From contig JALUDX010000055.1 in assembly GCA_027053355.1 (NCBI GenBank), positions 1 through 52,496 of the forward strand: a stretch of 52,496 nt of DNA, written 5' to 3'. Numbering within the stretch: position 1 is the stretch's first letter; each line of letters begins with the position of its first letter. This DNA is from Anaerolineales bacterium. GTDB lineage: Bacteria; Chloroflexota; Anaerolineae; Anaerolineales; DRMV01. Both the position numbers and the translations under genes were made by a program. The notes beneath the pieces are model-generated. The model saw only the letters and a program-made list of their open reading frames with translations. It searched no databases and had not been told where the DNA came from. Shown here in pieces: positions 79 through 17,287 of the stretch.

Positions 79-462
79 ATGCCCCGCCTTGCTGACCGAC
101 TGAAAGTGGAAATCGTTACCCGCGCAGTGGGCAGCCTGAACCATTGCTTTCACTGCCAGGTCTTCATCGACGACGTCGGCGTTGGGCAGCAAATCCACCG
201 CGAAGACCTGACCGCCTACCCCGCGGACGTGCAGGCCGAGTGGAATCGCCTTGTCGCGTTGGTGGGACGGTTAGGCGCTCGCTTCCCCGACCGGCTGTTC
301 GTGCAGGTCACCGACGCCCAATCGCCGCGCGGCTTGTGGCTGGCGCTGCGCGGGGTGCGCCGCTACCCGGCCTTCCTGATTGCGGGCGAGCGCATTTTCG
401 GCTGGGACGAGGAGGCCATTGCCCAGGCCATCGCCCGGCATCTGCCTTCGCTGCCGCGATGA
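79..462 (+). CDS. hypothetical protein (127 aa)
   Basis: Complete ATG-TGA ORF preceded by GGAAGGAAG. It contains a CFHC motif. I recognise no family by eye. Confidence 0.5.
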   Translation: MPRLADRLKVEIVTRAVGSLNHCFHCQVFIDDVGVGQQIHREDLTAYPADVQAEWNRLVALVGRLGARFPDRLFVQVTDAQSPRGLWLALRGVRRYPAFLIAGERIFGWDEEAIAQAIARHLPSLPR

Positions 463-565: not shown

Positions 566-3070
566 ATGATGCGTTTTGATCGCTTCACCGAGCGAGCGCA
601 AGAGGTTGCCCAGCGGGCAGCCGAACTCATCCAACGCTACGGTCACACCCAAATCGACACCGAGCACATCTTGCTGGCCCTGCTGGAGCAACCCGAAGGC
701 ACGGTGCCGCAAATTTTGGAACTGCTGAACACGCCCACACCGACGTTGATTCAGCAGGTCGACCACATCCTCCGCACCACGCCCAAGGCCAACATCTTTG
801 GCGGCGGCGCGGGGCAAATTTTCATCACCCCGCGCGTCAAGCGCATTGTCGACATGGCCAATCAGGAAGCGAACCGCCTGCAAGACGAATACATTTCCAC
901 AGAACACCTCTTCCTGGCCATTCTCAACGAACGCAACACCCCCGCGGCCACCCTGCTGGCTTCGGCGGGCGTCACCAAAGAGCGGGTGTACCGCGCTATT
1001 CAGCAACTGCGCGGCGGCCAACGGGTCACCGACCGCCGGGCGGAAAGCCGCTACCGCGCTTTGGCCAAATACTCGCGCGACCTGACCCAATTGGCCCGCG
1101 AAGGCAAACTCGACCCGGTCATCGGCCGCGATGGCGAAATTTTGCGGGTCATTCAGGTGCTTTCCCGGCGCACCAAAAACAACCCCGTGCTCATCGGCGA
1201 GGCGGGCGTGGGCAAAACGGCCATCGTCGAAGGGCTGGCGCAGAAAATCGTCAGCGGCGACGTGCCCGAAATCCTGGCCGGCAAGCGGGTGGTCTCCCTC
1301 GATTTGGGCGCCATGATTGCCGGTTCCCGCTTTCGTGGCGACTTCGAAGAGCGCCTGAAGGCCGCCATCGAAGACGTCAAGCGTTCTGAAGGCGAAATCA
1401 TCCTCTTTATTGACGAATTACACACCGTGGTGGGCGCGGGCGCGGCCCAGGGCGCGATGGATGCTTCCAACATGCTCAAGCCCGCGCTGGCGCGCGGCGA
1501 GTTGCAATGCATCGGCGCGACCACCCTCGACGAATACCACAAATACATCGAAAAAGACGCCGCGTTAGAGCGCCGCTTCGCGCCTGTGTATGTGGAAGAG
1601 CCGAGTATCGAAGATACCATCGAAATGCTGCGTGGCCTGCGCGACCGTTACGAAGCCCACCACCGGGTGCGCTTTACCGATGCAGCGTTGGTAGCCGCGG
1701 CGCGGCTTTCCAGCCGCTATGTGACCGACCGTCACCTGCCCGACAAGGCCATTGACCTGATCGACGAAGCCGCGGCCAAACTGCGGGTGGCGCTCTATTC
1801 CCTGCCCCCGGCCCTCAAAGCCAAAAAAGCGGAAATCGACCGCCTGATCGCGGAGGAAGAGCAAGCCCGCGAAGCCCGCGACTACGAACGCGCGGCCAAC
1901 AAGAAAATGGAACGTCTGCGCCTGGAAGAGGAATTCCAGCAGCAGCGCGCCGCCTGGGAAGCCGAAAACCAACTGGACGAAGTGGTGGATGCCGAAGACA
2001 TCGCGGAGGTGGTCTCCCAGTGGACGGGCATTCCCGTGACCCAGATGATGGAAACCGAAGCCGAGCGCCTGCTGCACATGGAAGAGCGCCTGCACGAGCG
2101 CATCGTGGGGCAGCACGAGGCCATTGCGGCCATTTCCGACGCCATCCGCCGCGCCAGATCAGGGCTGAAAGACCCCCGCCGCCCCATCGGGTCGTTCATC
2201 TTCATCGGCCCCTCGGGGGTGGGCAAAACCGAACTGGCCAAGGCGTTAGCCGAATTCCTGTTCGACGACGAAGACGCCTTAGTGCGGGTGGACATGAGCG
2301 AATACCGCGAGCAGCACACGGTTTCGCGGCTGTTTGGCGCGCCGCCGGGCTATGTGGGCTACGAAGAAGGCGGGCAACTCACCGAAGCCGTCCGCCGCCG
2401 CCCTTACCGGGTGATTTTGTTCGACGAAATCGAAAAAGCCCACCCCGAAGTGTGGAATTCGTTGCTGCAGATCCTCGACGATGGCCGCCTCACCGACGGC
2501 CAGGGGCGGGTGGTCGACTTCCGCAACACGGTGATCATCATGACTTCCAACCTGGGCACCGAATTCGTGCGCAAATCGGGTTCGTTGGGCTTCCTGCAAG
2601 GGGAAAGCAACGGCGACGAAGACCGCAAGGCGCAGGAAAAAATCGAGAAAGCCCTGAAGGCCACCTTCCGTCCCGAATTTCTCAACCGCATTGACGAAAT
2701 CATCATGTTCTCGCCGCTGAGCAGGGAAGAAATGCAGAAGATCGTGGATCTGCAGATGGCCGAGGTCGCCGAGCGGCTGGCCGAGCGCGACCTGACCGTG
2801 CAGTTGACCGAGGCGGCGCGTGATTACTTGGCGGAAATCGGCTACGACCCCGACTTTGGCGCCCGCCCGCTGAAGCGCGCCCTGCAGAAACACATCGAAG
2901 GCCCCTTGGCCATCCGCCTGCTGAGCGGCGAATTTGCCCCTGGCGACGCCATCGAAGTGGATGTGGAAGAAAACGAAGCCGGCGAAAAGGGCGTGGTGTT
3001 CCGCAAAGTAGAAGGCGCCCCTCGAGACGAGGCAGAGGCCAAGGCTCCCGAGCCCAACGCTGAGGCCTGA
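566..3070 (+). CDS. clpC: ATP-dependent Clp protease ATP-binding subunit, ClpC type
   Basis: 834 aa with two Clp_N repeats. NBD1 has GEAGVGKT and ILFIDELH. The short UVR-like middle domain reads [23 protein letters not shown]2 has GPSGVGKT and [21 protein letters not shown]. Confidence 0.93.
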
Positions 3071-3078
3071 ACGCCTCA

Positions 3079-3087
3079 TGATAAAAT
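3079..3087 (+). promoter_or_regulatory. extended -10 promoter element TGATAAAAT for the ATPase cassette
   Basis: TGnTAAAAT in the A/T-rich spacer 9 nt after the clpC stop and 43 nt before ATG 3130. Confidence 0.45.
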
Positions 3088-3129
3088 AACATAGGGTATT
3101 GTGCTGTACTCCTTCCCTTGGAGCCCCTC

Positions 3130-4308
3130 ATGAGCAATCCCGTGCTTCGTATCGAAGGCAGATTAGGCCCTGTGTCCTCGACGGATATCGAAATCCGTCC
3201 CTTGACGGTGTTCATTGGGCCGCAGGGGACAGGGAAATCCCTGGTCTCGCAAATGGTCTATTTCTTCGAGAATTTACGCTTTCTGGTGCGCTATTATGAG
3301 GCTCGCTTGGGGCCCGATGTTTCGGATGAAAAAATCATTCGCAAAATACTGGACGATTTGCGTAGTCAAGAGCGAGCGTTGGGCGTTTTTGCCAACCCCT
3401 CTGTGACGCTCTGTTGGCGTTCAGGGGGGGCGACAGAATTATGTTTCAGTATGGAACGGCGCAACCGCCAAATTCGTCCCCAACAATCGTTAGCCGATGC
3501 TGTAAACGCAAGCCGAATGCGAGAAAACGCGCCCGTAGCGCCCGTTTTTGGGAGCGCCCTTTTTGTTCCGGCGGAACGAGTTTTGTATTCACACGCCAGT
3601 GGCCCCGCTGCCTGGCAAGTATTGTCCTTGCCATCGACCCTTACCTTGTTTGCGGAGGCAATGGATCGGGTAGGGAAACGATTCGACGATATCCACCGCG
3701 CGTCGGCTGTGGTCAAGAAGTTGTGGCTGGAGGTTTTAGGGGGTGAGGTGCACCGCCACGGTGAGCGATGGAAGTGGCAAGCCGATGGGCACACGCAAAT
3801 GGACATCGATATGGCTTCTTCGGGGCAAAAGGCCAACTGGCCTTTGTTGGCGTTGGCTGAGGCTTTGCCAGTATGGAAAAACGACCGTGAAATTGCAACG
3901 CCTTTTACCCTCCACGTGGAAGAACCGGAGATTCACCTGCATCCCAAGGCGCAAACCCGCCTGGTAGAATTACTGGCCTCTCTGGTCAAGCAAGGCTTTC
4001 GGCTGGTGCTGACGACCCATTCGCTGACGGTGATTTACAAACTCAACAACCTCATTCTGGCTTCAGGTTTGGAAGGGGAAACAGATAACAGTTTGCCCGC
4101 GCCAGAGGCGCGGCTTCTGCCCTCGCAGGTGGCCGCTTACCTTTTTCACCCTGATGGCACCATTGAAAATCTTGTCGATGATGAAACCGGCTTCATCAGT
4201 GAAGCACCGCTTGGCGAAATCGGCGATCAGTTGATGGAAGAAATGAACGCCATCATGGCACGGCGGGTGATGCATGATGAAATTCGTGAACAACTGATGG
4301 AAGTGTAG
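3130..4308 (+). CDS. AAA_15/AAA_21-type ABC ATPase (OLD / PtuA / GajA / AriA-like clade)
   Basis: Walker A FIGPQGTGKS, signature-like SSGQKANW, Walker B/D-loop LHVEEPEIHLHP and H-loop LTTHS. GGAG lies 6 nt before ATG 3130; the ORF track starts at the in-frame TTG 3118. The sequence is visibly A/T-richer than its flanks. Confidence 0.8.
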   Translation: MSNPVLRIEGRLGPVSSTDIEIRPLTVFIGPQGTGKSLVSQMVYFFENLRFLVRYYEARLGPDVSDEKIIRKILDDLRSQERALGVFANPSVTLCWRSGGATELCFSMERRNRQIRPQQSLADAVNASRMRENAPVAPVFGSALFVPAERVLYSHASGPAAWQVLSLPSTLTLFAEAMDRVGKRFDDIHRASAVVKKLWLEVLGGEVHRHGERWKWQADGHTQMDIDMASSGQKANWPLLALAEALPVWKNDREIATPFTLHVEEPEIHLHPKAQTRLVELLASLVKQGFRLVLTTHSLTVIYKLNNLILASGLEGETDNSLPAPEARLLPSQVAAYLFHPDGTIENLVDDETGFISEAPLGEIGDQLMEEMNAIMARRVMHDEIREQLMEV

Positions 4309-4309
4309 C

Positions 4310-4867
4310 ATGGAGCGATTGTCTTCGTGCCCCCATGGCCCTGCCTTGATAGAGCCTCAAACGGGCCAACGGCTGGATTTTGGCGATAGTGCTGTGGCAT
4401 ATCGATTGCGGCGAAATGTAGATTTTTGGCCCGGCGACCGCAGCCCCGACGGCGTGGTGATCGGCAGATACGGCGAAAGAACTTGGGTTTGCTTCGTAGA
4501 GATGAAGACGTCGACGCGCAGCGCATCATCTGCCCACGCGTGGAGCCAGTTGGAGATGGGCGTCACGCATTTTGCTCCGAGCACCTCCTGCGACGGCGCA
4601 AGCCTGCGAACCCACGGCGACAGCCACCACGAACGATGGCGAAGTGGGAGTGACCGCCTGGAAATATGGCCAGAAAAAGAGCACTGTGTGGCAGCCGTAA
4701 AAATACTTTGGCGCAATGGGCCTCGCCCCCGCCCAAAAATCAGGGAAATGTGTGGTAAAAAGGTGCGCTTTGTTGTGATGGGTTTGAGTTTGAAAAAACA
4801 AAACGAAGTTTCGCTTGCTTTCGAAGCGTTTGGTCAAAAGGCCACTTTGCCAGTACATGGATGCTAA
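4310..4867 (+). CDS. hypothetical protein with PD-(D/E)xK-like motif (candidate nuclease partner of the ATPase)
   Basis: The ATG lies 1 nt after the ATPase TAG. S-P-D47 ... E64-M-K66 (SPDGVVIGRYGERTWVCFVEMK) has typical PD-(D/E)xK spacing. It is the longest ORF in this interval. The odd Trp/His/Cys/Arg-rich composition leaves coding status uncertain. Confidence 0.5.
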   Translation: MERLSSCPHGPALIEPQTGQRLDFGDSAVAYRLRRNVDFWPGDRSPDGVVIGRYGERTWVCFVEMKTSTRSASSAHAWSQLEMGVTHFAPSTSCDGASLRTHGDSHHERWRSGSDRLEIWPEKEHCVAAVKILWRNGPRPRPKIREMCGKKVRFVVMGLSLKKQNEVSLAFEAFGQKATLPVHGC

Positions 4868-4885
4868 AACAGGAGGAGGTTCCCC

Positions 4886-5443
4886 ATGATCAAAGATGCC
4901 CTCAAAGACGCCGAACACCGAATGCAAGGTGCGGTGCGGGCGTTGGAGGAAGACCTGGCCGCTATCCGCACGGGCCGCGCGTCGCCCGCCCTGGTCGAAC
5001 GCTTAGAGGTGGAATACTACGGCACGCCCACGCCCTTGCTGCAACTGGCCGCGATCAGCGTGCCCGAACCGCGGCAACTGCTCATCAAACCCTTCGACCC
5101 CTCCACCCTGCGGGCAATCGAGCGCGCCATCCAAACTTCCGATCTGGGTCTCAACCCCAACAACGACGGCAAAAACATCCGCCTGATTTTGCCGCCGCTC
5201 ACCGAAGAGCGCCGCCGCGAACTGGTGAAAGTGGTGCACCACCGGGTCGAAGAAGCCCGCATCGCCATCCGCAACATCCGCCGCGACGTCAAAAAAGACC
5301 TCAAAGAATTCGAAGACGAAAAACTCATCTCTGAAGACGAACGCAAGCGGGCAGAAGACAAACTGGACGATCTGACCAAGGAATACATCGAGAAGGCCGA
5401 GGCCGTGGGCGAGCGCAAGGAAAAAGAAGTGATGGAGGTGTGA
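4886..5443 (+). CDS. frr: ribosome recycling factor
   Basis: 185 aa with the full-length RRF pattern ([39 protein letters not shown]). AGGAGGAGG RBS. Confidence 0.97.
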
Positions 5444-7273: not shown

Positions 7274-8263
7274 ATGTGTGAAACTTCTGTTCCCACGCGC
7301 AACCTGGCGTTGGAATTGGTGCGCGTGACCGAAGCCGCGGCCATGGCCGCGGGGCGGTTTATGGGGCGCGGCGACAAAAAAGCCGCGGACCAGGCCGCGG
7401 TCGACGCCATGCGCTTGGTGCTCAATACTATCGATATGGACGGCATCATTGTCATCGGTGAGGGTGAAAAAGACGAAGCCCCTATGCTTTACAACGGTGA
7501 ACACGTGGGCACGGGCGAGCCGCCCCAGGTTGACCTGGCTGTCGACCCCATCGACGGCACCCGCCCTGTGGCCAACGGCCTGCCCAACGCTATCGCCACT
7601 GTGGCCGTAGCCCCCAGAGGCACCATGTTCGACCCTGGCCCCTTCGTGTATATGCACAAAATCGCGGTGGGCCCCGAGGCGCGAGGCATGATCGACGTCG
7701 AAGCCCCGGTGGAAGTCAACCTGCGGCGCATTGCGCGGGTCAAGGGCAAAGACGTCCGCGACCTCACGGTGGTGATCCTGGATCGCCCCCGCCACGAAAA
7801 ACTGATCGCCGAGGTGCGGCGCTTGGGTGCGCGCATCCGCTTGATCCCCGATGGCGATGTGGCCGGCGCGCTGATGACGGCGTGGCCCGATTCGGGCATC
7901 GATGTGCTCTTGGGTATCGGCGGTACCCCCGAAGGTGTGTTGGCGGCCTGTGCGCTGCGCGCGATGGGCGGCGAAATTCAAGGCAAACTCTATGCCCGTA
8001 ATGAAGACGAACTGCGCCGCGGCCAGGAAATGGGCTACGACTTCGACAAAGTGCTCACCATGGACGACCTGGTTGCCTCGAACGACGTCTTCTTCGCTGC
8101 CACCGGCATCACCGATGGCGAGTTGCTGCGCGGGGTCAAATACACCGGCGACGGCGCCCGCACCTACAGCCTGGTGGTGCGCGGCCTGACCGGCACCGTC
8201 CGCGAGGTGATTGCTTTTCACCGCTTAGAGAAACTGCGCCGCTTTAGCCCCGTGGATTACTGA
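7274..8263 (+). CDS. glpX: class II fructose-1,6-bisphosphatase
   Basis: 329 aa with GlpX motifs (DGIIVIGEGEKDEAPML, DLAVDPIDGT, GIGGTPEGV). AAAGGAGG RBS. Confidence 0.95.
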   Translation: MCETSVPTRNLALELVRVTEAAAMAAGRFMGRGDKKAADQAAVDAMRLVLNTIDMDGIIVIGEGEKDEAPMLYNGEHVGTGEPPQVDLAVDPIDGTRPVANGLPNAIATVAVAPRGTMFDPGPFVYMHKIAVGPEARGMIDVEAPVEVNLRRIARVKGKDVRDLTVVILDRPRHEKLIAEVRRLGARIRLIPDGDVAGALMTAWPDSGIDVLLGIGGTPEGVLAACALRAMGGEIQGKLYARNEDELRRGQEMGYDFDKVLTMDDLVASNDVFFAATGITDGELLRGVKYTGDGARTYSLVVRGLTGTVREVIAFHRLEKLRRFSPVDY

Positions 8264-8366
8264 GCAGCCCCCAATACCCCTCGCCAATGACCGCATCCCC
8301 TCTGTAGCGCCAGAATTGCAACGAAATTGCAATGCTTTTCGGGCCGTTTTCGGGTATACTAAAAGC

Positions 8367-8411
8367 GTCGGACGCCTGGGTGCCCCCCTCACTCAGGCGT
8401 CTGACATTTTA
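8367..8411 (+). terminator. candidate intrinsic terminator downstream of glpX
   Basis: A 12-bp stem (GTCGGACGCCTG / CAGGCGTCTGAC, one G-U pair) with a 15-nt loop, followed by ATTTTA. Confidence 0.4.
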
Positions 8412-8444
8412 AGCGTAAGCCCCTTGAAGGGAGGCCACAGTCCT

Positions 8445-8987
8445 ATGGTGTCGCTGGCGGACGAACGACGGGCAGACCCGAACTTAGAGGCTTCCAACGA
8501 GGCCCAAGCCGTGCGGCGGGGCACGGGAAAGCGATTGTCTATCGTGCCGTTGCGCCCTGAAGATCAACGAGAGGCCAAATCTTTGATTCTGGCGGGCATG
8601 GAAGAACACTGGGGCGTGCTGGATGAAAGCAAAAATCCGGATCTGAACGATATTGCCGCTTCCTATGCCGATGGTGTTTTCTTGATAGCATGGCAACAGG
8701 GGGAAATGGTAGGGACAGGAGCGTTTCGGCCGGTATCTGACAAAACGGTAGAAATCGTCCGAATGTCGGTGAAGAAAGAAAAACGGCGCCAGGGCATAGG
8801 CGGCGAAATCTTGAAGGCATTGTGCCGCCGCGCTTTTCAACGAGGCTTCACACGGGCGATTCTGGAAACCACGGCGACTTGGGAAGAAGCGGTGGCCTTT
8901 TACCAAGCCTTTGGTTTTGAAATAACACACCAAACGGGTGGCAACTTGTATTTTGCCATGGATTTACAAAGGTGGGCAGCCGATTGA
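8445..8987 (+). CDS. GNAT family N-acetyltransferase
   Basis: Acetyl-CoA motif VKKEKRRQGIGGEILKAL and C-terminal AFYQAFGFE. GAAGGGAGG RBS before ATG 8445. Lower G+C than its neighbours. Confidence 0.85.
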   Translation: MVSLADERRADPNLEASNEAQAVRRGTGKRLSIVPLRPEDQREAKSLILAGMEEHWGVLDESKNPDLNDIAASYADGVFLIAWQQGEMVGTGAFRPVSDKTVEIVRMSVKKEKRRQGIGGEILKALCRRAFQRGFTRAILETTATWEEAVAFYQAFGFEITHQTGGNLYFAMDLQRWAAD

Positions 8988-9019
8988 CGGACGAAACCGG
9001 GGGGCTTTTCAAAAATCTT

Positions 9020-9260
9020 GTAATTACCTACCCAGAAGCGCTGCAGTGGCTTTTTGCCCTCACCTTACCCCCGCTGTGCGCCCCCTCTCCTCTCCCATTG
9101 GGAGAGGAGAGGGGGCTGAGCCACTACCCTGAGCGAAGTCGAAGGGGGCGGCTCTGGGGGAGTGGTGAGGGCGAGCAAGGTGTAATGTTGTTTCATGGCA
9201 TGGCAGAGTTATTGGGATATTGCTTGTCAACCTCGTTTTCAGCGCAGGGTAGGTAGTTAC
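9020..9260 (+). mobile_element. 240-nt MITE, GTAATTACCTACCC-TIR family (copy B1)
   Basis: TIRs are GTAATTACCTACCC and GGGTAGGTAGTTAC. Flanked by the direct repeat CAAAAATCTT(G) at 9010-9020 and 9261-9271. The core is a 17-bp perfect hairpin, GCCCCCTCTCCTCTCCC-ATT-GGGAGAGGAGAGGGGGC. Confidence 0.8.
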
Positions 9261-9394
9261 CAAAAATCTTGCTTTCCCCACCCTCTCCTCTCCCTCCAGG
9301 ATACGATACAATTGTCCTACAACCCAACCCCCGAGCCCACGCCTTGGCCGCGCCCCACCCCAGGCGTGAGGCCGCTTTTTGATTGGAAAAGACG

Positions 9395-12187
9395 ATGCCC
9401 ACCTTTGTTGCCCTCGACCTGGAAACCACCGGCCTCGACCCGCAAAGCGACGAAATCATCGATATCGGCGCAGTGCGGTTCACCGCCCGGCGGATGGAAG
9501 ACGAATTCGCCACTTTGGTGCGCCCCCAACAACATATCCGCGGCTTCATCACCCGCCTGACCGGCATCAGCGACGATATGGTCGCTGCCGCACCGCGGCT
9601 GAGCACTGTGCTGCCCCAACTGCTCGATTTCGTCGGCGACGCGGTGATCATCGGCCACAACGTGCAGTTCGACCTCAACTTCCTCGCGGCCGCGGGTATC
9701 TCCTTCCTCAACCCGGTGGTCGATACCTACGAATTGGCTTCGGTGCTCCTGCCCGATGCCAGCCGTTACGCGCTGGGCGCTTTGGGCCAGGCCCTCAACA
9801 TCCCCCTGCGGGCGACCCACCGGGCGCTGGACGATGCGCGGGTGACCGCTCACCTGTACCGCCGCCTGGTCGACAAGGCCGAGGCATTGCCCTTGGACCT
9901 GGTCGCGGCCATCGTGCGGCTGGGCGTCGAAGGCAAATGGTTGGGCACGTGGCCGTTCCAGCAAATCCTGTTCCGCAAGCAAAAGCAAGGCCAGCGGGGG
10001 CGAAGCCTGCCTACCGCGTGGCAGCCGCGCGAACAGGCGCCCGTGGTGCCGCGGCCGCCCCAGGCCGAGGCCGAGAAGCCCGTCGACCCCGACACGGTCG
10101 CAGCCCTGCTGGCCCCCGAAGGCGCCTTAGCCCGCCGCCTGCCGACTTTCGAACACCGTCCCCAGCAGGTGACCATGGCCCGCGCGGTGGCCAAAGCCTT
10201 TTCCCAACCGCACCACCTCATCGTCGAAGCGGGCACCGGCACGGGCAAATCCATCGCCTACTTGCTACCCGCCGCGCTGTTTGCCCTGGAAAACAACACG
10301 CGGGTGGTCATCTCGACCAACACCAAAAACCTGCAAGAGCAACTGCTGCAAAAAGACATCCCCATCGTGCAGGCTGCACTCGACCAGCCCCTGCGGGCGG
10401 CGGTGCTCAAAGGCCGGAACAACTACCTCTGCCCGCACCGCTTCCACAGCCTGTTAGAGCAAGGCGCGCGGCGGCCTGAAGAGGCGCGCGTCCTGGCCAA
10501 GGTGCTGGTATGGCTGCACCAAGGCGGCAGCGGCGACCGCGGGGAAATCAACCTGCGCGGGGGCGCGGAACAGGCCGTGTGGCGGCGCATTTCCGCGGAA
10601 TCGCCGGCCTGCACCGCCGCGGGCTGTATGCGCTTTAGCGGCGGCGCGTGCCCCTTCCAACAGGCCCGCCACGCGGCCGAACAGGCGCATCTCTTGGTGG
10701 TCAACCACGCGCTGCTGTTCAGCGACGTGGCCGCGGCCAACCGGGTGCTGCCCGAATACAACTACCTGGTGGTGGACGAAGCCCACCACCTGGAATCGGC
10801 CATTACCCAGGCCATGAGTTTCGAAGTCACCGAAGACGCGGTGCGTCGGCTGTTTACCGAACTGGGTGGCACCAAAGCCGGCCTGCTGGGGCGCCTGATT
10901 TTGGTCACCCGCCGCAGCGGCGACGCGGTGCGCACTGCCGCCCGGCATCACGCCGAGATCCTCACCGGCCTGGCCTTCCGCACCCAAGAGGCCATCAAAG
11001 CCACCTTTGCCACCCTGCATGACTTCGTAGAAGACGACCAGGTCGGGCGGCCCCCTTCCCAATACGCGCAGCAATTGCGGCTGACGCCCGCCATCCGCCA
11101 GCGCGCGCCGTGGGAGGCCGTGCTCACCATATGGGAAGAAGCCTTTGCCGCCGCGCGGGCGTTGGATCAGGCTTTGGTGCAACTGCGCCGCGACCTGTTG
11201 GAAAGCACCGCCGAAGAAGACGACCCCCTCCGCGACGTGCTCAACGAAATCGAAGCCGTGCGCAGCCATTTGACCGAGGTGACCCTCAACCTGAACGCGC
11301 TGCTCATGGAACCCGCGCCCAAAATGGTCTATTGGCTGGAACGTAACCCCCGCAGCCGGTGGCTCGCCCTGCGCGGCGCGCCATTGGAAATCGGCGCCGA
11401 CATGCGCGAACACCTGTGGGAGGCCAAGCCCGCCATCGTGCTTACCTCGGCCACCCTTTCGGCCGGCGGCGATTTCTCTTACCTGCGCCAACGCCTGGCT
11501 GCAGAAGAAGCCGAAGAACTGTTGCTCGGCTCGCCCTTCGATTACCGCCAGGCCGCGTTGCTCTACGTGGTCAACGACATCCCCGAACCCAACCGCCCCG
11601 GCTACCAGCAGGCTGTGGAACGGGGCATCCTGGAACTGGCCAAAGCCACCCACGGCCGGCTGCTGGCCCTGTTCACCTCGTACACTCAACTGCAGCGCAC
11701 TTCGCAGGCCATCACCCCCGGGCTGCTCGAAGCCGGGATCACCGTTTACGAACAGGGCAGCGGTGCCTCGCCCCAGGCGCTACTCGACGAGTTCCGCCAG
11801 GCAGAAGGCGCGGTGCTCCTGGGCACCCGCTCGTTTTGGGAAGGGGTCGACGTGCCCGGCGACGCGCTCTCCGCGCTGGTAATCGTCAAACTGCCCTTCG
11901 CCGTTCCCTCCGACCCGCTGGTGGCCGCCAGGGCCGAGACGTTCACCAACCCCTTCGAGGAATACCACCTGCCCGAGGCGGTTTTGGCCTTCCGGCAGGG
12001 GTTTGGGCGGCTGATTCGCACCTGCACCGACCGGGGCATCGTGGCCGTGTTCGACCGGCGGCTGCTCACCCGCCGCTATGGCCGCGCTTTCTTAGACGCC
12101 TTGCCCCCTTGCACCCGCCACCAGGGGCCGATGCACCGCCTGCCCGCGGTGGCCGCGCGCTGGCTGAGCCGCGACGGCAAAACGTAA
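9395..12187 (+). CDS. dinG: bifunctional DnaQ-type 3'-5' exonuclease / DinG-family ATP-dependent helicase
   Basis: Exonuclease motifs FVALDLETTGLDP, GHNVQFDLNFL and HRALDDA. Helicase motifs AGTGTGKS and VVDEAHHLE. A Cys cluster LCPH...PACTAAGC...GACPF is present. ATG 9395 is preferred over the in-frame TTG 9383. Confidence 0.9.
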   Translation: MPTFVALDLETTGLDPQSDEIIDIGAVRFTARRMEDEFATLVRPQQHIRGFITRLTGISDDMVAAAPRLSTVLPQLLDFVGDAVIIGHNVQFDLNFLAAAGISFLNPVVDTYELASVLLPDASRYALGALGQALNIPLRATHRALDDARVTAHLYRRLVDKAEALPLDLVAAIVRLGVEGKWLGTWPFQQILFRKQKQGQRGRSLPTAWQPREQAPVVPRPPQAEAEKPVDPDTVAALLAPEGALARRLPTFEHRPQQVTMARAVAKAFSQPHHLIVEAGTGTGKSIAYLLPAALFALENNTRVVISTNTKNLQEQLLQKDIPIVQAALDQPLRAAVLKGRNNYLCPHRFHSLLEQGARRPEEARVLAKVLVWLHQGGSGDRGEINLRGGAEQAVWRRISAESPACTAAGCMRFSGGACPFQQARHAAEQAHLLVVNHALLFSDVAAANRVLPEYNYLVVDEAHHLESAITQAMSFEVTEDAVRRLFTELGGTKAGLLGRLILVTRRSGDAVRTAARHHAEILTGLAFRTQEAIKATFATLHDFVEDDQVGRPPSQYAQQLRLTPAIRQRAPWEAVLTIWEEAFAAARALDQALVQLRRDLLESTAEEDDPLRDVLNEIEAVRSHLTEVTLNLNALLMEPAPKMVYWLERNPRSRWLALRGAPLEIGADMREHLWEAKPAIVLTSATLSAGGDFSYLRQRLAAEEAEELLLGSPFDYRQAALLYVVNDIPEPNRPGYQQAVERGILELAKATHGRLLALFTSYTQLQRTSQAITPGLLEAGITVYEQGSGASPQALLDEFRQAEGAVLLGTRSFWEGVDVPGDALSALVIVKLPFAVPSDPLVAARAETFTNPFEEYHLPEAVLAFRQGFGRLIRTCTDRGIVAVFDRRLLTRRYGRAFLDALPPCTRHQGPMHRLPAVAARWLSRDGKT

Positions 12188-12492: not shown

Positions 12493-12545
12493 GAAGTTCC
12501 GCGCCTTTGTTGGCAGCACCTCTCTTGGGTTGGGCGGAACGCTAA

Positions 12546-12614
12546 CGCCGCCCTACGACGCTCTCAAATCCGCGGCTATCCGTAATCCTCCGCGTTCATC
12601 CGCGGCCTATCTCC
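12546..12614. repeat. GCGGAT-module repeat fragment
   Basis: AAATCCGCGGCTATCCGTAATCCTCCGCGTTCATCCGCGGCCTAT is nearly the reverse complement of 26775-26845. Confidence 0.7.
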
Positions 12615-12677
12615 CGCGCAGATTTCGGAAGCAACCGCCCCGCGTCGTCCGCGGGCGATCTTCCCAAGGAAACCGCC

Positions 12678-13136
12678 ATGCCCCCTCTTACCGAGCCTTG
12701 CCAGGCGGAACGGGAACTCCTGAAAGCCGTGGGGGTTTCCCTTCCCTCCACGCTGCGGGTGGAAGTGGGTACCCGCCGGGCCCGCGCTTTGGCCTGGGTT
12801 TTTACCCGCCTGGATGCCCCACCGGCTGCCTTTGCTTTGGGGCGCACGGTGTTCATCCCCGACCCGGCTTATTTTGCGCGCCTCACTTTGCCCCAGCGCG
12901 CCGCGCTGCTGGCCCACGAGAGCGTGCACGTGGCGCAATGGCAGCGTTTAGGCGCGCCCCGCTTTTTGTGGCAATACCTGCGCGACTACCTGCGCACCCG
13001 CCGCCAGGGCTTAGACACCCACGACCCGCACCAGGGCATCGCGTTGGAGCGCGAAGCCCTGGCCTACGAAAGTCGGTTGCTGCCCTTGCTGGAAGTCGCC
13101 GCGGGGGCAGAAGATGCGCCCCCACCCGCGGCTTGA
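12678..13136 (+). CDS. DUF4157-like zincin (HExxH) domain protein
   Basis: ALGRTVFI ... LLAHESVHVAQWQ matches the DUF4157 metallopeptidase-like core. Confidence 0.65.
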   Translation: MPPLTEPCQAERELLKAVGVSLPSTLRVEVGTRRARALAWVFTRLDAPPAAFALGRTVFIPDPAYFARLTLPQRAALLAHESVHVAQWQRLGAPRFLWQYLRDYLRTRRQGLDTHDPHQGIALEREALAYESRLLPLLEVAAGAEDAPPPAA

Positions 13137-13146
13137 TGCTTTCCCC

Positions 13147-14394
13147 CTACATGCGCTGCCACAGGCTCACGGTTTCGATGTGATAGGTTTGCGGGAACAT
13201 GTCAAAGGGGGTGATGTGGCGCAGGCGATACCCGCGGCGGGCGAAGCGTTTGCCGTCGCGGGCCAAGGTGGCCGGGTCGCACGAAACATAAGCCACCAGG
13301 GGCGGTTGCAAAGCCAGCAAGGCGTCTAACGCCTCGCGGCGCAGGCCGCTGCGCGGCGGGTCCAGCACCACCACATCCGGCCGATAGCCCTGCGCGGCCA
13401 GGTAGGGCAACGCCTGCGCGGCCGAGGCTTCGTAAAGGCTGATGTGGTCGAACGCCTGCAAATTGACTTCGAAATCGGCGCACGCCGCGGGGGAAGACTC
13501 AATCGCCACCACCTCGCCCACCCGCGGAGCCAGGAAAGCGGTCAGCAGACCCACGCCGCTAAACACTTCCAGCAGCCGCGTGCGGGGTTCCAACGGCAAA
13601 ATCGTGAGCAAATGGTCGATCAGGGCCTCGGCAACCCCCACGTTGACCTGGAAGAAGGAAGCCGCCGAAACCCGAAACGCACGGCCGCGCACCGCCATCT
13701 GCAGCGCGGGATGACCGGCCAGCACAAAAGAGCGGCCATCGAAGGACGTATACACCGCGGAAAGGGGGAAATCGACCGCGAAGCCCGGGGGTTCAGCCGC
13801 TCGGCCGCGCAGCCAGAGCAACACGTTGCCATCGGTTCCCACCCGCAGGTGCACCCGTTCCACACCGCTTTCGGCTTCGAATTGCAGGCGGGGCAGTACT
13901 TCCCGCAGCCGCGGCTCGGCTAAAAGGCAATCGTCCACCGGAACCAAAGCCTGCCCCCGGGGGGCCTGAAAGCCCCACGTGCCGTCGGCCGCGACGTGCA
14001 GTTGAATGTGGTTACGGTAGCCCCACACCCGCGGGGAAGGCACAGTAGGCCGTACCCGCGGCTCGGCAAAGCCGCCGATGCGCTGCAATTGGTCGCGCAC
14101 GATAGCCTCTTTGGCCGTCAACTGGGCCGCGTAGGCCACGTGCTGATAATGACAACCGCCGCAGCGGCCAAAGAAGGGGCAACGCGGCACCACCCGGTCG
14201 GGCGAAGTTTCGAGCAGCGAGACCACTTCCCCCCGGGCGTAGTGGGGCCTTTCTTCGGTGAGGCGCACCAGGGCGCGCTCGCCGGGCAGCGCCCGCGGCA
14301 CGAACACCGCGCGGCCGTCGCTCAGCCGCCCCATGGCTTCGCCGCCGTAAGCCCATTTGGTCAGGCTTACTTCGTGCTGTTGGGGTTCGGCCAT
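13147..14394 (-). CDS. 23S rRNA (uracil-C5)-methyltransferase, RumA/RlmD family
   Basis: TRAM-like N-terminus, Cys cluster CPFFGRCGGCHYQH, and SAM-MTase motifs EVFSGVGLL, VVLDPPRSG and YVSCDPATLARD. The ATG at 14394 lies just after the upstream gene's stop. Confidence 0.88.
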   Translation of the reverse strand: MAEPQQHEVSLTKWAYGGEAMGRLSDGRAVFVPRALPGERALVRLTEERPHYARGEVVSLLETSPDRVVPRCPFFGRCGGCHYQHVAYAAQLTAKEAIVRDQLQRIGGFAEPRVRPTVPSPRVWGYRNHIQLHVAADGTWGFQAPRGQALVPVDDCLLAEPRLREVLPRLQFEAESGVERVHLRVGTDGNVLLWLRGRAAEPPGFAVDFPLSAVYTSFDGRSFVLAGHPALQMAVRGRAFRVSAASFFQVNVGVAEALIDHLLTILPLEPRTRLLEVFSGVGLLTAFLAPRVGEVVAIESSPAACADFEVNLQAFDHISLYEASAAQALPYLAAQGYRPDVVVLDPPRSGLRREALDALLALQPPLVAYVSCDPATLARDGKRFARRGYRLRHITPFDMFPQTYHIETVSLWQRM

Positions 14395-15119: not shown

Positions 15120-16154
15120 TCAGGAGGCTTGCGGGGCGGGCAACGGCGGTTCCTCGGCCGGGGGAGGCGCTTCCTGGTCGGCTGCATCTGTGGGTTTGCC
15201 CTCGAGCCAGTGCAGATAAGCCAGGGTCCACGCGCTTTCGATGTAGGCGCGCACCAGGCCGCTGAGGAAGATCAGCACCACCCACCAAACGATGAACAGC
15301 AGGACACCCACTACGACAAGTAACCCCAACATCAGACCGTGGGCGTTCATCGCTATGCCCATGGCGACCAATGGCCCGCCGAACACGGTCAACAACAGGA
15401 AGGCCACCACGGCGATGAGCAGCCCTACGCCTAAGCGCACCGCGGCGAGGAGCAAGCCGGTGAGCACCACCTGCCAGAAGTTGTCCTTGAAGACCTCCCA
15501 CCCTCGCGAAAACGATTGCCAAACGGTGGTGCCTTCTACCAGCAGCGCGAGGATGGCCATTTCGAAATACAGCGCCAGCCCCCACAGCACGGGAATTGCT
15601 AACAGTACGCCGGGCAGCAGGCAGAATATCCCGACGCCGTGGGTTACCACGATCAGGGCGATGCCGAGGATCGCCAACAAAATGACCAAGGTGCCTACGC
15701 CACCGCCGATGAGCAAGAAGAAGCCAAATGCCCGCCAGAAGAAAGGCTTGGCCAAAGCGTAGGCCTCACTCACCGAAAGCACGACATCTTGGCGGAGGTC
15801 GTGCAAGGTGATGTGGATGATGGCCGGTTCGGCCAAGGCCCGCAACGCGGTGGCGATGAGCAGCCAGACCACGAACAGCAGCACCAACCCCACGGCGATA
15901 AGGATCAGCATGTTGGGCGAGATGCCGGTAAAGATGTTCCAGAAATCTTCAGAGGGTCCCGGTGAGCCGCCGTACGGGGGGGCGTGGTGAGACGACGAGG
16001 GGAACCAAGAAGAGGGCATCTGAAAATTGAACCCTCCAAAATTGAAATTGCCATAACTCCCCCCGGCGCACGCGCTAAGGAACCCAAACAGCCACAGTGC
16101 GCGCTGTCGTTTGAGGATGCGCCAGGCTTGCGCCAGAATGTCTTGGTAAGGCAT
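15120..16154 (-). CDS. polytopic membrane protein (paralogue of 16280..17287)
   Basis: AAGGAGG RBS. N-terminus MPYQDILAQAWRILKRQRALWLFGFL. It has many TM segments and a Pro-rich C-terminus. Confidence 0.7.
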   Translation of the reverse strand: MPYQDILAQAWRILKRQRALWLFGFLSACAGGSYGNFNFGGFNFQMPSSWFPSSSHHAPPYGGSPGPSEDFWNIFTGISPNMLILIAVGLVLLFVVWLLIATALRALAEPAIIHITLHDLRQDVVLSVSEAYALAKPFFWRAFGFFLLIGGGVGTLVILLAILGIALIVVTHGVGIFCLLPGVLLAIPVLWGLALYFEMAILALLVEGTTVWQSFSRGWEVFKDNFWQVVLTGLLLAAVRLGVGLLIAVVAFLLLTVFGGPLVAMGIAMNAHGLMLGLLVVVGVLLFIVWWVVLIFLSGLVRAYIESAWTLAYLHWLEGKPTDAADQEAPPPAEEPPLPAPQAS

Positions 16155-16279: not shown

Positions 16280-17287
16280 TTAGGCCTCTTGGGCGGGCAC
16301 GGAGATTTCCGTGGGTTGGGGCTCGAAGCCCGAAAGGGCGCGATAGAGCAACACCCACCCGGCCAGGGTAAACGTGACTACCGGCGCGAGGGGTAGCGCC
16401 GCCAGGGCTTTACTGCCCACAGCAAGGCCAATGGACGTAACCACGGTGAGGGCCGGATGCGCGGCGAACCAACCCACCAGCGTCTGCCCGCCAAACTGTA
16501 AAAGCACGCCCAAAAAGGCCACGCCCCAAGAAATCACGAAGCCCACGACCTGCCAGGCAATTTTTTGGATCAGCCACAAGACCAGAGCGACCAAGGCAGC
16601 GCGCCAGAAATGCTTTCTCCATAAGGTTTCGGCGCGCCCCAACGCGCCCCACAGCGAGAGGTCGTCGACCACCACCGCGGTTTCACCCAACTGCACATAC
16701 ACTCCAACGAGCCAACTGACCACCATCACGATGCCGAACAAAATCAGGGCCAGCCCTGCCACCACCGCGCCTGCCTGCATGGCTACCCCCACCAAGCACA
16801 TGCCAAGGCCGGCAAGGGCAATGACGAATATCAACACCACCGGCACAGGAAAGAAGAAAAGCCGCCAGAAGAAACGCCGCGCCGCGCCCCAAAGGTGCTG
16901 CCGCGTCGGCGTTTCGCCGCGCAGGTGCTGGGCTGCGCCGAACAACACGCCGCCCGCACCCAACGCGAAAAGCGCATAAAACAAGAGCAATACTCCCAAC
17001 ATCGACACCGTGTGGGCATTGCCCACCGCCTTTGCGGTGTGTTCGGGCATGGCCTGCAACACGCCCCGCCAAAAGTCCAACGGTTGCCAACCCCCGCCCT
17101 GGACGAACCGCGGCGGCCGGGAACCCGGGTTTGCCCTGCTCAACGTTTTCATCAGCAGGGCCCACCCTCTCGGATAAGTGGCCTCGGTGGGCGCTCCCAC
17201 CAGCGCGGCCAAGTAGCCAAACAGCCACAGGCTACGCTGGCGGCGGGCAATTTCCCAGGCTGCGGACAAAATCTTCCCCACATTCAT
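16280..17287 (-). CDS. polytopic membrane protein (paralogue of 15120..16154)
   Basis: N-terminus MNVGKILSAAWEIARRQRSLWLFGYL parallels the downstream paralogue. It starts 10 nt after the guaA stop. Confidence 0.7.
   Translation of the reverse strand: MNVGKILSAAWEIARRQRSLWLFGYLAALVGAPTEATYPRGWALLMKTLSRANPGSRPPRFVQGGGWQPLDFWRGVLQAMPEHTAKAVGNAHTVSMLGVLLLFYALFALGAGGVLFGAAQHLRGETPTRQHLWGAARRFFWRLFFFPVPVVLIFVIALAGLGMCLVGVAMQAGAVVAGLALILFGIVMVVSWLVGVYVQLGETAVVVDDLSLWGALGRAETLWRKHFWRAALVALVLWLIQKIAWQVVGFVISWGVAFLGVLLQFGGQTLVGWFAAHPALTVVTSIGLAVGSKALAALPLAPVVTFTLAGWVLLYRALSGFEPQPTEISVPAQEA

Follow-up and report, generated by a model that had tools for sequence, protein, structure and literature searches.

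What is the two-gene cassette that lies between clpC and frr in the DNA shown above, and what could it do for its host? The stretch analysed, hereafter the window, is the 52,496-nucleotide (nt) Anaerolineales contig JALUDX010000055.1, and an earlier note, made from its letters alone, had read the cassette as a candidate defence system: a gene for a 392-amino-acid (aa) ABC ATPase (gene A) and, one nucleotide after its TAG, a 185-aa open reading frame (ORF; gene B) with a PD-(D/E)xK-like motif. All of the motifs quoted in that note are present in the two proteins. Our comparisons place A in the OLD/ABC clade as a WonA-type ATPase and B among the PD-(D/E)xK-type proteins, with a core homologous to that of the 'novel REase' proteins, WonB included, and we are highly confident of both molecular identities. 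WonA and WonB are the products of the two-gene system WonAB from the Vibrio cholerae WASA-1 prophage (Adams et al., Nat Microbiol 2025, PMC12137116). A WonAB-like anti-phage defence role for the cassette, argued by analogy with that system, is likely. Judged by sequence, the pair is a divergent relative of the WonAB/PD-T4-4 type and not a new kind of system.

High-G+C DNA yields many long spurious reading frames, many overlapping ORFs were listed for the stretch, and the B sequence returned no match in Pfam, NCBIfam, PHROGs or the PDB; A and B might on these grounds be taken for decaying remnants or chance frames. This explanation is effectively refuted. The ratio of nonsynonymous to synonymous substitution rates (dN/dS) is ~0.06 for A and ~0.10 for B against the orthologues (72-84% identical) of two related genomes, L001 and L002, where synonymous sites are unsaturated. 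There are 253 A homologues and 71 B-family representatives, the catalytic motifs are invariant (the figures for single residues follow) and the structure model of B is confident. A and B are thus real genes under purifying selection.

Gene A carries the complete motif set of an ABC ATPase (Table 1), and its motif residues, K36, R150, E265 and H297 among them, are invariant in 40 homologues. Its proposed place in the OLD/ABC ATPase clade was borne out by Pfam matches to AAA_15 (1.9e-16) and AAA_21 (7.8e-13). The 253 homologues comprise close ones at 81-97% identity and ~250 distant ones at 36-54%. Against a WonA-type profile built from 10 ATPase sequences of PMC12137116 Supplementary Table 5, A aligned over its full length (364 columns) with an hhalign probability of 100% and an E value of 3e-45. 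By BLASTP it matched a Maridesulfovibrio WonA-like ATPase over residues 15-376 (93 bits, E 2e-24) and a WonA-like C-terminal fragment at 34% identity (81 bits), with similarity running through residues 310-376; the C-terminal extension VAAY..DGT..D(D/E)ETG.I lies within the two alignments. Among solved structures PtuA, OLD and UvrA matched only locally, at 20-31 bits, PtuA and OLD best. The PADLOC models likewise matched A in part: AriA gave the best score (3.9e-19, residues 225-302 only), and PDC-M56A, NsnB, PD-T4-4_A, PDC-M29A, PDC-M47A and HEC-02A matched as well, with no family-level match for A or for any of the 40 A-family members tested. There is no Toprim domain fused to A, whose 392 aa comprise only the ATPase and the C-terminal extension.

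The motif of B reads S-P-D47, 16 residues, then E64-M-K66. Apart from three close homologues at 72-78% identity, a profile search returned 71 representatives (50%-identity clusters) at E <= 1e-3, 44 of them at E <= 1e-10, and family members are mostly 150-220 aa long. In an alignment of 49 sequences, to which all conservation figures for B refer, the positions of D47 and E64 are acidic without exception (D in 44 and E in 5 sequences for the former, E in 47 and D in 2 for the latter), and K66 is K in 44/49 and T in 5/49, in agreement with the PD-(D/E)xK-like nature first ascribed to the protein; we predict these three residues to be catalytic. Conservation extends to Q80 (48/49) and R139 (45/49) and to a set of positions rich in histidine: H87, F88, G103, H107 and H125 are present in 49/49, H106 in 48/49, D115 in 46/49 and H102 in 43/49. 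Examples of members with T in place of K66 are P0155 (DIT), P0162 (DLT) and P0178 (ELT).

When the B profile was compared with one of 18 'novel REase' sequences, WonB included, hhalign gave a probability of 97.3% (P 2e-11) over B residues 10-91, with reversed and column-shuffled controls at P 0.4-0.9, and paired D47, E64-x-K66 and the A..QL helix of B with the novel REases. A Corallococcus novel REase alone matched the B profile at 94.9% (E 4e-8), and WonB alone reached a probability of 33%, so that the relation is clear only from profile to profile. The effector, which the earlier note could not assign to any named family, can accordingly be placed by its core. Other searches gave fainter signals: single B-family members weakly match Pfam Herpes_UL24 (1.9e-4) and RE_BsaWI, and PADLOC matches among the 49 members comprised PDC-M29B in 15/49 (best 1.1e-4), PDC-M47B in 3/49 and PD-T4-4_B in 1/49. 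Scans with Pfam, PADLOC and NCBIfam found no Toprim, HNH or DUF4435 domain in B. An RNase P protein that appeared in the PDB profile search at E 1.4, which is chance level, was rejected as a relative.

The AlphaFold2 model of B built on the 49-sequence alignment has a mean predicted local distance difference test score (pLDDT) of 93.1 and a predicted template modelling score (pTM) of 0.90; an earlier model from a 4-sequence alignment (pLDDT 33) was not used. In the model D47 stands before strand 48-54, E64 and K66 lie in strand 57-66 and helix 74-88 carries Q80 and H87, a predicted order of secondary structure that is canonical for PD-(D/E)xK enzymes. A Foldseek search with this model returned no match at <= 1e-3 (best E 4.6e-2 in the PDB and 1.2e-2 in BFVD), so that the fold is assigned here from profile-profile homology together with motif topology. 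The weak Foldseek matches are mostly PD-(D/E)xK enzymes: McrC, FokI (at a probability of 0.77), BsmI, PaqCI, DdmD, Hjc, BamHI, herpesvirus UL24/UL76, VRR-NUC, RecU and HamA. Greedy hhalign left B residues ~92-124, which contain the H102-G-D-x-H-H..W...D115 helix, unaligned to WonB-type proteins, at low confidence; with the same low confidence, this segment appears to be an insert of ~35 residues placed before the fourth core strand, which starts at H125.

The resemblance to WonAB extends from the arrangement of the genes to single residues. In both, an operon of two genes encodes an OLD-type ABC ATPase together with a small nuclease of a variant PD-(D/E)xK type; as expected for the WonAB type, the genes here adjoin, with a gap of 1 nt, the ATPase motifs are in place and the partner is related to the novel REases. 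The two WonAB genes suffice for protection and neither is dispensable, WonA K34, R182, E300 and H333 are each required for defence, and WonB K71A abolishes defence and toxicity (PMC12137116). Residues K36, R150, E265 and H297 of A occupy the same motifs as these four WonA residues (Walker A, FxPAxR, Walker B and H-loop, respectively), a residue-for-residue match that we infer from motif positions through an alignment to a WonA-like ATPase rather than to WonA itself. A has, beyond the shared motif set, the C-terminal extension VAAY..DGT..ETG.I; the corresponding part of WonA is the predicted binding place of WonB, which would dock onto the extensions once they have dimerised (PMC12137116). The core of B, D...hhFhE-x-K...A..QL, resembles that of WonB, and in the alignment K66 pairs with WonB K71, an essential residue.

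There are also differences from WonAB. WonB has 140 aa compared to the 185 aa of B; the latter has the apparent ~35-residue insert, invariant histidines included, and differs in its C-terminal half. In A, the conserved arginine follows the Walker A lysine at a distance ~34 residues shorter than in WonA (K36-R150 versus K34-R182), so that Insert 1/2 of A is probably shorter than that of WonA. Finally, WonAB is borne by a prophage, whereas the present pair is chromosomal, inside a housekeeping operon of an Anaerolineae host. Operons of the type 'OLD-ABC ATPase + novel REase' were catalogued by Krishnan, Burroughs, Iyer and Aravind (NAR 2020; consulted through PMC12137116 Supplementary Table 5), with a frequency given there of 0.96% of bacterial genomes. 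Both A and B match profiles built from this catalogue (10 ATPases and 18 novel REases), and some of its members share the H-F motif that follows the Q helix. Gene order varies in the catalogue but is always ATPase then nuclease in the present subfamily, and the histidine-rich insert is absent from those catalogued sequences that were examined. The listed part of the supplementary tables of PMC12137116 holds no Chloroflexota entry.

Other ABC ATPase systems stand further off or differ in their effector. PD-T4-4, which likewise couples an ABC ATPase to a PD-(D/E)xK nuclease in two genes, has been validated (Vassallo et al. 2022, PMC9519451; 10.1101/2025.07.10.664194), and PADLOC PD-T4-4_A matches 40/40 A-family members (best E 1.4e-20) over part of the profile only; PD-T4-4_B, however, matches 1/49 B-family members, at E 0.044, which points to a different branch, and we rejected membership in PD-T4-4 for lack of any further match of the nuclease partner. 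The PADLOC-DB 2.0 candidate PDC-M29 matches on both sides (PDC-M29A in 40/40 A-family members, best 6.5e-18; PDC-M29B in 15/49, best 1.1e-4), as do PDC-M47A and PDC-M47B of the candidate PDC-M47. For the window proteins themselves, the PADLOC check proposed in the earlier note gave a match of A to PDC-M29 over part of the model (E 6.3e-14) and one of B at E 0.027; matches there are, but none at family level, and the pair is a relative of PDC-M29 and not a member. Our literature search found no publication mentioning PDC-M29. HEC-02 consists of an ABC ATPase and a NERD nuclease, both needed for defence (Payne et al., 10.1101/2024.01.29.577857), and thus also joins an ABC ATPase to an effector of the PD-(D/E)xK superfamily. 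HEC-02A, the only PADLOC model to span A almost end to end, aligns with A residues 22-307 (E 8.6e-13), but the effector is of the NERD kind and no B-family member matched HEC-02B. OLD, Gabija GajA, Septu/retron PtuA and PARIS AriA share the ABC ATPase super-clade with A (Pfam AAA_15/AAA_21) but have Toprim, HNH or DUF4435 effectors, and their similarity is limited to the stretch from signature to H-loop, at 20-31 bits; PARIS, Septu, Gabija, AbiL and OLD proper were rejected as identities, since their partner is of another kind and they resemble A only locally. The earlier statement that this clade is normally paired with Toprim, HNH or DUF4435 effectors is therefore too narrow, pairs of an ABC ATPase and a PD-(D/E)xK nuclease having been validated by experiment in WonAB, PD-T4-4 and HEC-02 (PMC12137116, PMC9519451, 10.1101/2025.07.10.664194, 10.1101/2024.01.29.577857). 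Since WonAB, PD-T4-4 and HEC-02 already represent the theme, and A aligns with the WonA type at E 3e-45, the suggestion of a possibly undescribed variant overstates the case.

The earlier note had left open whether the pair recurs in unrelated genomes, and it does. Loci were gathered through A-family proteins and a metagenome scan with the ATPase alignment, and 28 had enough downstream sequence to be informative. In 25/28 a B-family ORF lies directly 3′ of the ATPase gene on the same strand, usually within 25 nt. The exceptions are a frameshifted contig in which a B-like N-terminus is visible (L106), a metagenome contig in which the partner is a more divergent WonB-like protein with CD...ELR...Q (L109, 3962-5848) and another in which a large DNA-methyltransferase-like ORF follows ~230 nt after the ATPase (L107, 924-3829); the ATPases of the last two are more distant A-family members, at 34-35% identity. 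Carriers of A homologues belong to Anaerolineae, Thermoflexales, Ardenticatenia, Archangium, Polyangia and Sandaracinaceae, that is, to Chloroflexota and Myxococcota. In L178 the gene run is SNF2+PglZ, DUF4143, DUF234, the pair, DUF559, DUF3800, AbiEi_4, two integrases and FtsK, and the pair is here within a clear defence island on an integrative element. In L176 it stands beside a SLFN_AlbA_2/HATPase_c_4 gene, with an integrase ~7 kb away. The pair is thus a conserved unit that recurs across phyla at unrelated sites.

Two of these sites resemble the clpC-frr setting. In a Thermoflexales genome and a related metagenome-assembled genome (MAG; L007, 5415-8789, and L008, 5420-9206) a 50-51% identical pair lies inside the mur operon, flanked by murC and a gene of the Colicin_V family (Pfam PF02674), with <=14 nt between neighbours in L007, and the same operon also holds PIN, MazE, UPF0175, PDDEXK_3 and SLFN_AlbA_2 genes. 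Essential operons in these Chloroflexota seem to be landing sites for defence and toxin-antitoxin genes. Such settings could also suit a selfish addiction module of the toxin-antitoxin kind, with B as the nuclease toxin and A as the protein that neutralises it; the module would be kept because cells that lose it die, and it would play no part against phage. In favour of this, the coupling of the two genes is tight, they are set in essential operons (clpC-frr here, mur with PIN and MazE genes in L007 and L008) and stay at one site in several species, Pfam describes AAA_21 as 'putative AbiEii toxin, type IV TA system', and over-produced WonB is toxic (PMC12137116). For WonAB, however, simple sequestration has been excluded, the toxicity of WonB requiring both WonA and ATPase activity (PMC12137116). 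The cassette has moreover been cleanly lost from, or was never gained by, close relatives of its host, which indicates that its loss is tolerated, and the L178 pair lies in a defence island. We regard an addiction module as improbable and retain WonAB-like defence as the preferred reading.

The history of the clpC-frr site was reconstructed from six genomes; by an Frr search of species-representative genomes, the window belongs with uncultured Anaerolineaceae/Anaerolineales of the phylum Chloroflexota. Two relatives are filled, with the gene order clpC-A-B-frr-uppS-cdsA-glpX: L001 (GCA_053993155.1; ClpC 93% and Frr 94% identical) and L002 (GCA_054011795.1; ClpC 86%, Frr 83%). Three are empty, with no A or B: the Anaerolineaceae MAGs L011 (ClpC 93%, Frr 94%) and L012 (ClpC 92%, Frr 93%), where clpC and frr are separated by 167 and 169 bp, respectively, and the Anaerolineales MAG L014 (ClpC 86%, Frr 84%), where the gap is 134 bp. 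As clpC adjoins frr without the cassette in close relatives, the cassette is a variable accessory insertion, and its description as a compact insertion in a housekeeping neighbourhood was apt. Its composition, noted before as A/T-richer than its surroundings, sets it apart as well: at 54.0% its G+C content is below that of every 1.79-kb stretch sampled at 100-nt steps over the 52-kb window (mean 64.1%, sd 3.5). The G+C content at third codon positions (GC3) is 0.587 in A and 0.573 in B, compared to 0.75-0.80 in clpC, frr, uppS, cdsA and glpX, and the cassettes of L001 and L002 show the same (0.53-0.62 versus 0.70-0.77 in their flanks), so that each of the three carriers shows strongly foreign codon usage in the cassette.

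The alleles themselves (window 3130-4867, L001 8914-10603, L002 6930-8640) point in a similar direction. Nucleotide identity between the window and L001 is 86% in the flanks, 76% in A and 71% in B; between the window and L002 it is 78-80%, 75% and 76%; and between L001 and L002 it is 77-80%, 74% and 73%. The cassette alleles are thus about equidistant (70-76%), whereas the flanks group the window with L001, and for B the order is even reversed. Equidistant alleles in hosts that are not equidistant fit exchange or re-acquisition at a hotspot better than strict co-divergence, which suggests that alleles have been exchanged or re-acquired at clpC-frr; the alternative is a faster, saturating evolution of the cassette.

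These data also bear on whether A and B might be a vertically inherited cellular ATPase-nuclease with a housekeeping task, DNA repair or RNA quality control for example, whose genes are expressed together with clpC and frr. A shared position in three species, with proteins 72-84% identical and under purifying selection, would agree with such a task, as would the apparent transcription from the resident spacer together with frr, and the related ABC ATPases UvrA, RecF, RecN and SbcC act in repair, UvrA being among the proteins that match A. The pair is, however, absent from three equally close relatives with an intact clpC-frr junction, in each of the three carriers it has strongly foreign codon usage, it has not diverged in step with the flanks, and it is patchy over Chloroflexota and Myxococcota, at unrelated sites and once in an integrative element. 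A housekeeping role is on balance very improbable. None of the outcomes that the earlier note had named as telling against its defence reading came about in full. Vertical conservation with host-like composition is seen in part, in that two related species have the pair at the same site; it is missing from three others, and its composition is not host-like.

The junctions delimit what was inserted. The -10-like ATGATAAAAT box on the left is conserved 0-70 nt from the clpC stop in all six related genomes, filled or empty (in the window TGATAAAAT is present at 3079-3087), and overlaps the clpC stop codon in L001 and L002. On the right, similarity resumes at GGAGGAGGTTCCCCATG, which comprises the frr ribosome-binding site (RBS) and start codon and is identical in the empty L011 and L012; as previously noticed, the frr RBS, GGAGGAGG, begins just four bases after the B stop. 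The cassette had been credited with its own extended -10 and a GGAG RBS. The latter holds, GGAG sitting 6 nt 5′ of the ATG of gene A and being kept with that ATG in L001 and L002; the former does not, since the ATGATAAAAT box is found equally in L011, L012 and L014 and is therefore an element of the resident spacer. A promoter owned by the cassette was ruled out on these grounds, together with a strict sigma-70 -35/-10 consensus scan of the region that found no promoter and no -35 consensus beside the ATGATAAAAT box. The likely role of the box is as the -10 region in the promoter of frr-uppS-cdsA. With the cassette placed between this box and the frr RBS, the simplest reading is that A and B are co-transcribed with frr-uppS-cdsA, which is probable, and no + strand terminator was found at either cassette border, including the one between B and frr. 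The ~130-nt spacer of the empty sites, when sought in the filled sites, and the reverse, yielded only the two junction motifs. This segment is 82-94% conserved between L011 (6834-7000) and L012 (6832-7000) and could be an frr leader.

Marks of a mobile element were not found, as the earlier note had observed for an integrase and repeat boundaries: no integrase-like gene is among the neighbours tested, the cassette borders show no direct or inverted repeats beyond chance-level 12-20-mers, and searches for tRNA genes and Rfam families in the window found none.

By analogy with WonAB, we propose the following mechanism. A would form a head-to-head dimer around two ATP and act as the sensor and licensing component, and B would be a small metal-dependent PD-(D/E)xK nuclease with D47, E64 and K66 as catalytic residues. 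A phage-derived cue, together with a working ATPase, would unleash the docked nuclease B and stop the infected cell. The WonAB precedent is abortive infection, in which defence sets in after the start of phage DNA replication, translation stops and the chromosome is not degraded, with rRNA or tRNA as the suspected target; WonB is unstable and degraded by Lon, and its toxicity on over-production appears only with active WonA (PMC12137116). Nuclease activity, complex formation, trigger, target and anti-phage function of the present pair are all carried over from this precedent. The cassette itself would have been inserted, or exchanged, between the resident promoter-like box after clpC and the frr RBS.

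Several observations weigh against this reading. The alignment with WonB-type proteins covers the N-terminal half of B and no more, and the invariant histidine cluster is without a WonB counterpart, so that the chemistry could differ. Five of the 49 B-family members have T for K66 with the acidic residues and histidines kept; these may be inactive copies or use different chemistry. The structure model of B found no significant Foldseek match, matches to the PADLOC 2.0 models are weak, and a call of the system by them is improbable, and the search of IMG/VR viral contigs found no close homologue. Within the window the cassette stands alone amid housekeeping genes, with no defence island around it. 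Occupation of the clpC-frr site in at least three species is also compatible with long-term retention for a cellular role.

What is new here is, on the evidence of sequence, a coherent subfamily in which the nuclease is set apart by an invariant histidine-rich insert and by its C-terminal half, the order of ATPase and nuclease genes is fixed and the ATPase insert appears shorter, to judge from motif spacing. It is missed by Pfam, NCBIfam and PADLOC 2.0 although the nuclease alone forms 71 clusters at 50% identity, and in the window it occupies a recombinase-free place within a transcription unit of housekeeping genes, a site that is filled in some close relatives and empty in others. If the defence role holds, the finding extends ABC-ATPase + PD-(D/E)xK immunity of the WonAB/PD-T4-4 type into Chloroflexota and Myxococcota, phyla in which, to our knowledge, almost no phage defence has been studied experimentally; no new principle of immunity is involved. 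With its strict conservation, the histidine-rich insert offers a testable handle on how effector chemistry varies within the class, and the filled and empty clpC-frr sites would be a natural example of a defence cassette settling in a housekeeping unit without recombinase or repeats. A bolder idea, to which we give only low credence, is that H87, H102, H106, H107, H125 and D115 together make up a further site, catalytic or metal-binding, which alters the action of the effector, for instance towards a specific RNA substrate or as a metal-gated switch, and that the pair spreads among Chloroflexota by slotting precisely into essential operons. Were this so, the second histidine/metal site would define a distinct effector class within the ABC-ATPase defence systems, and a promoter-less pair would borrow the transcription of an essential operon, where polar effects on downstream genes might hinder its loss.

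Table 1. Cassette features and flanking genes, by position in the window
Feature	Position	Strand	Details
clpC	566-3070	+	stop TGA 3068-3070; 59-nt spacer before gene A
Left junction: resident -10-like ATGATAAAAT(A) box	3079..3090	+	common to filled and empty sites; outside the inserted DNA
Cassette-specific 5′ leader	3091..3129	+	no counterpart in empty sites; GGAG RBS 3120-3123
Gene A, 392-aa OLD/WonA-type ABC ATPase (by sequence)	3130..4308	+	ATG start; TAG at 4306-4308
Walker A GPQGTGKS	3217-3240	+	residues 30-37; K36
FVPAER	3562-3579	+	R150
Signature SSGQK	3817-3831	+	residues 230-234
Walker B LHVEEPE	3910-3930	+	residues 261-267; E265; then HLHP 269-272
H-loop TTHS	4012-4023	+	residues 295-298; H297
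C-terminal extension of A, VAAY..DGT..DDETGFI	4129-4197	+	
Gene B, 185-aa predicted PD-(D/E)xK-type nuclease	4310..4867	+	ATG at 4310, a single base after the gene A TAG; TAA stop 4865-4867
Key residues of B	4448-4450; 4499-4507; within 4544-4573	+	D47; E64-M-K66; Q80
Histidine-rich segment of B	4568..4684	+	H87-F88 ... H102-G-D-x-H106-H107 ... D115 ... H125
Right junction	4868..4888	+	4 nt after the B stop, then resident frr RBS GGAGGAGG 4872-4879; frr ATG 4886
frr	4886-5443	+	followed by uppS, cdsA, glpX

The other neighbours tested in the window are housekeeping genes, for a DinG-like helicase-exonuclease, an RlmD-like methyltransferase, GuaA and a PLP enzyme. Four ORFs, 79-462 (+), 12530-13183 (+), 15120-16154 (-) and 16280-17287 (-), have no Pfam match at E <= 1e-5. 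A GNAT acetyltransferase gene at 8316-8987 (+; Pfam Acetyltransf_1, 6.9e-18) has a cassette-like GC3 of 0.56 and lies within a second low-G+C stretch (~8200-9400), directly after glpX, where synteny with L001 and L014 stops. It is absent from the L001 and L014 loci and may be another acquired gene.

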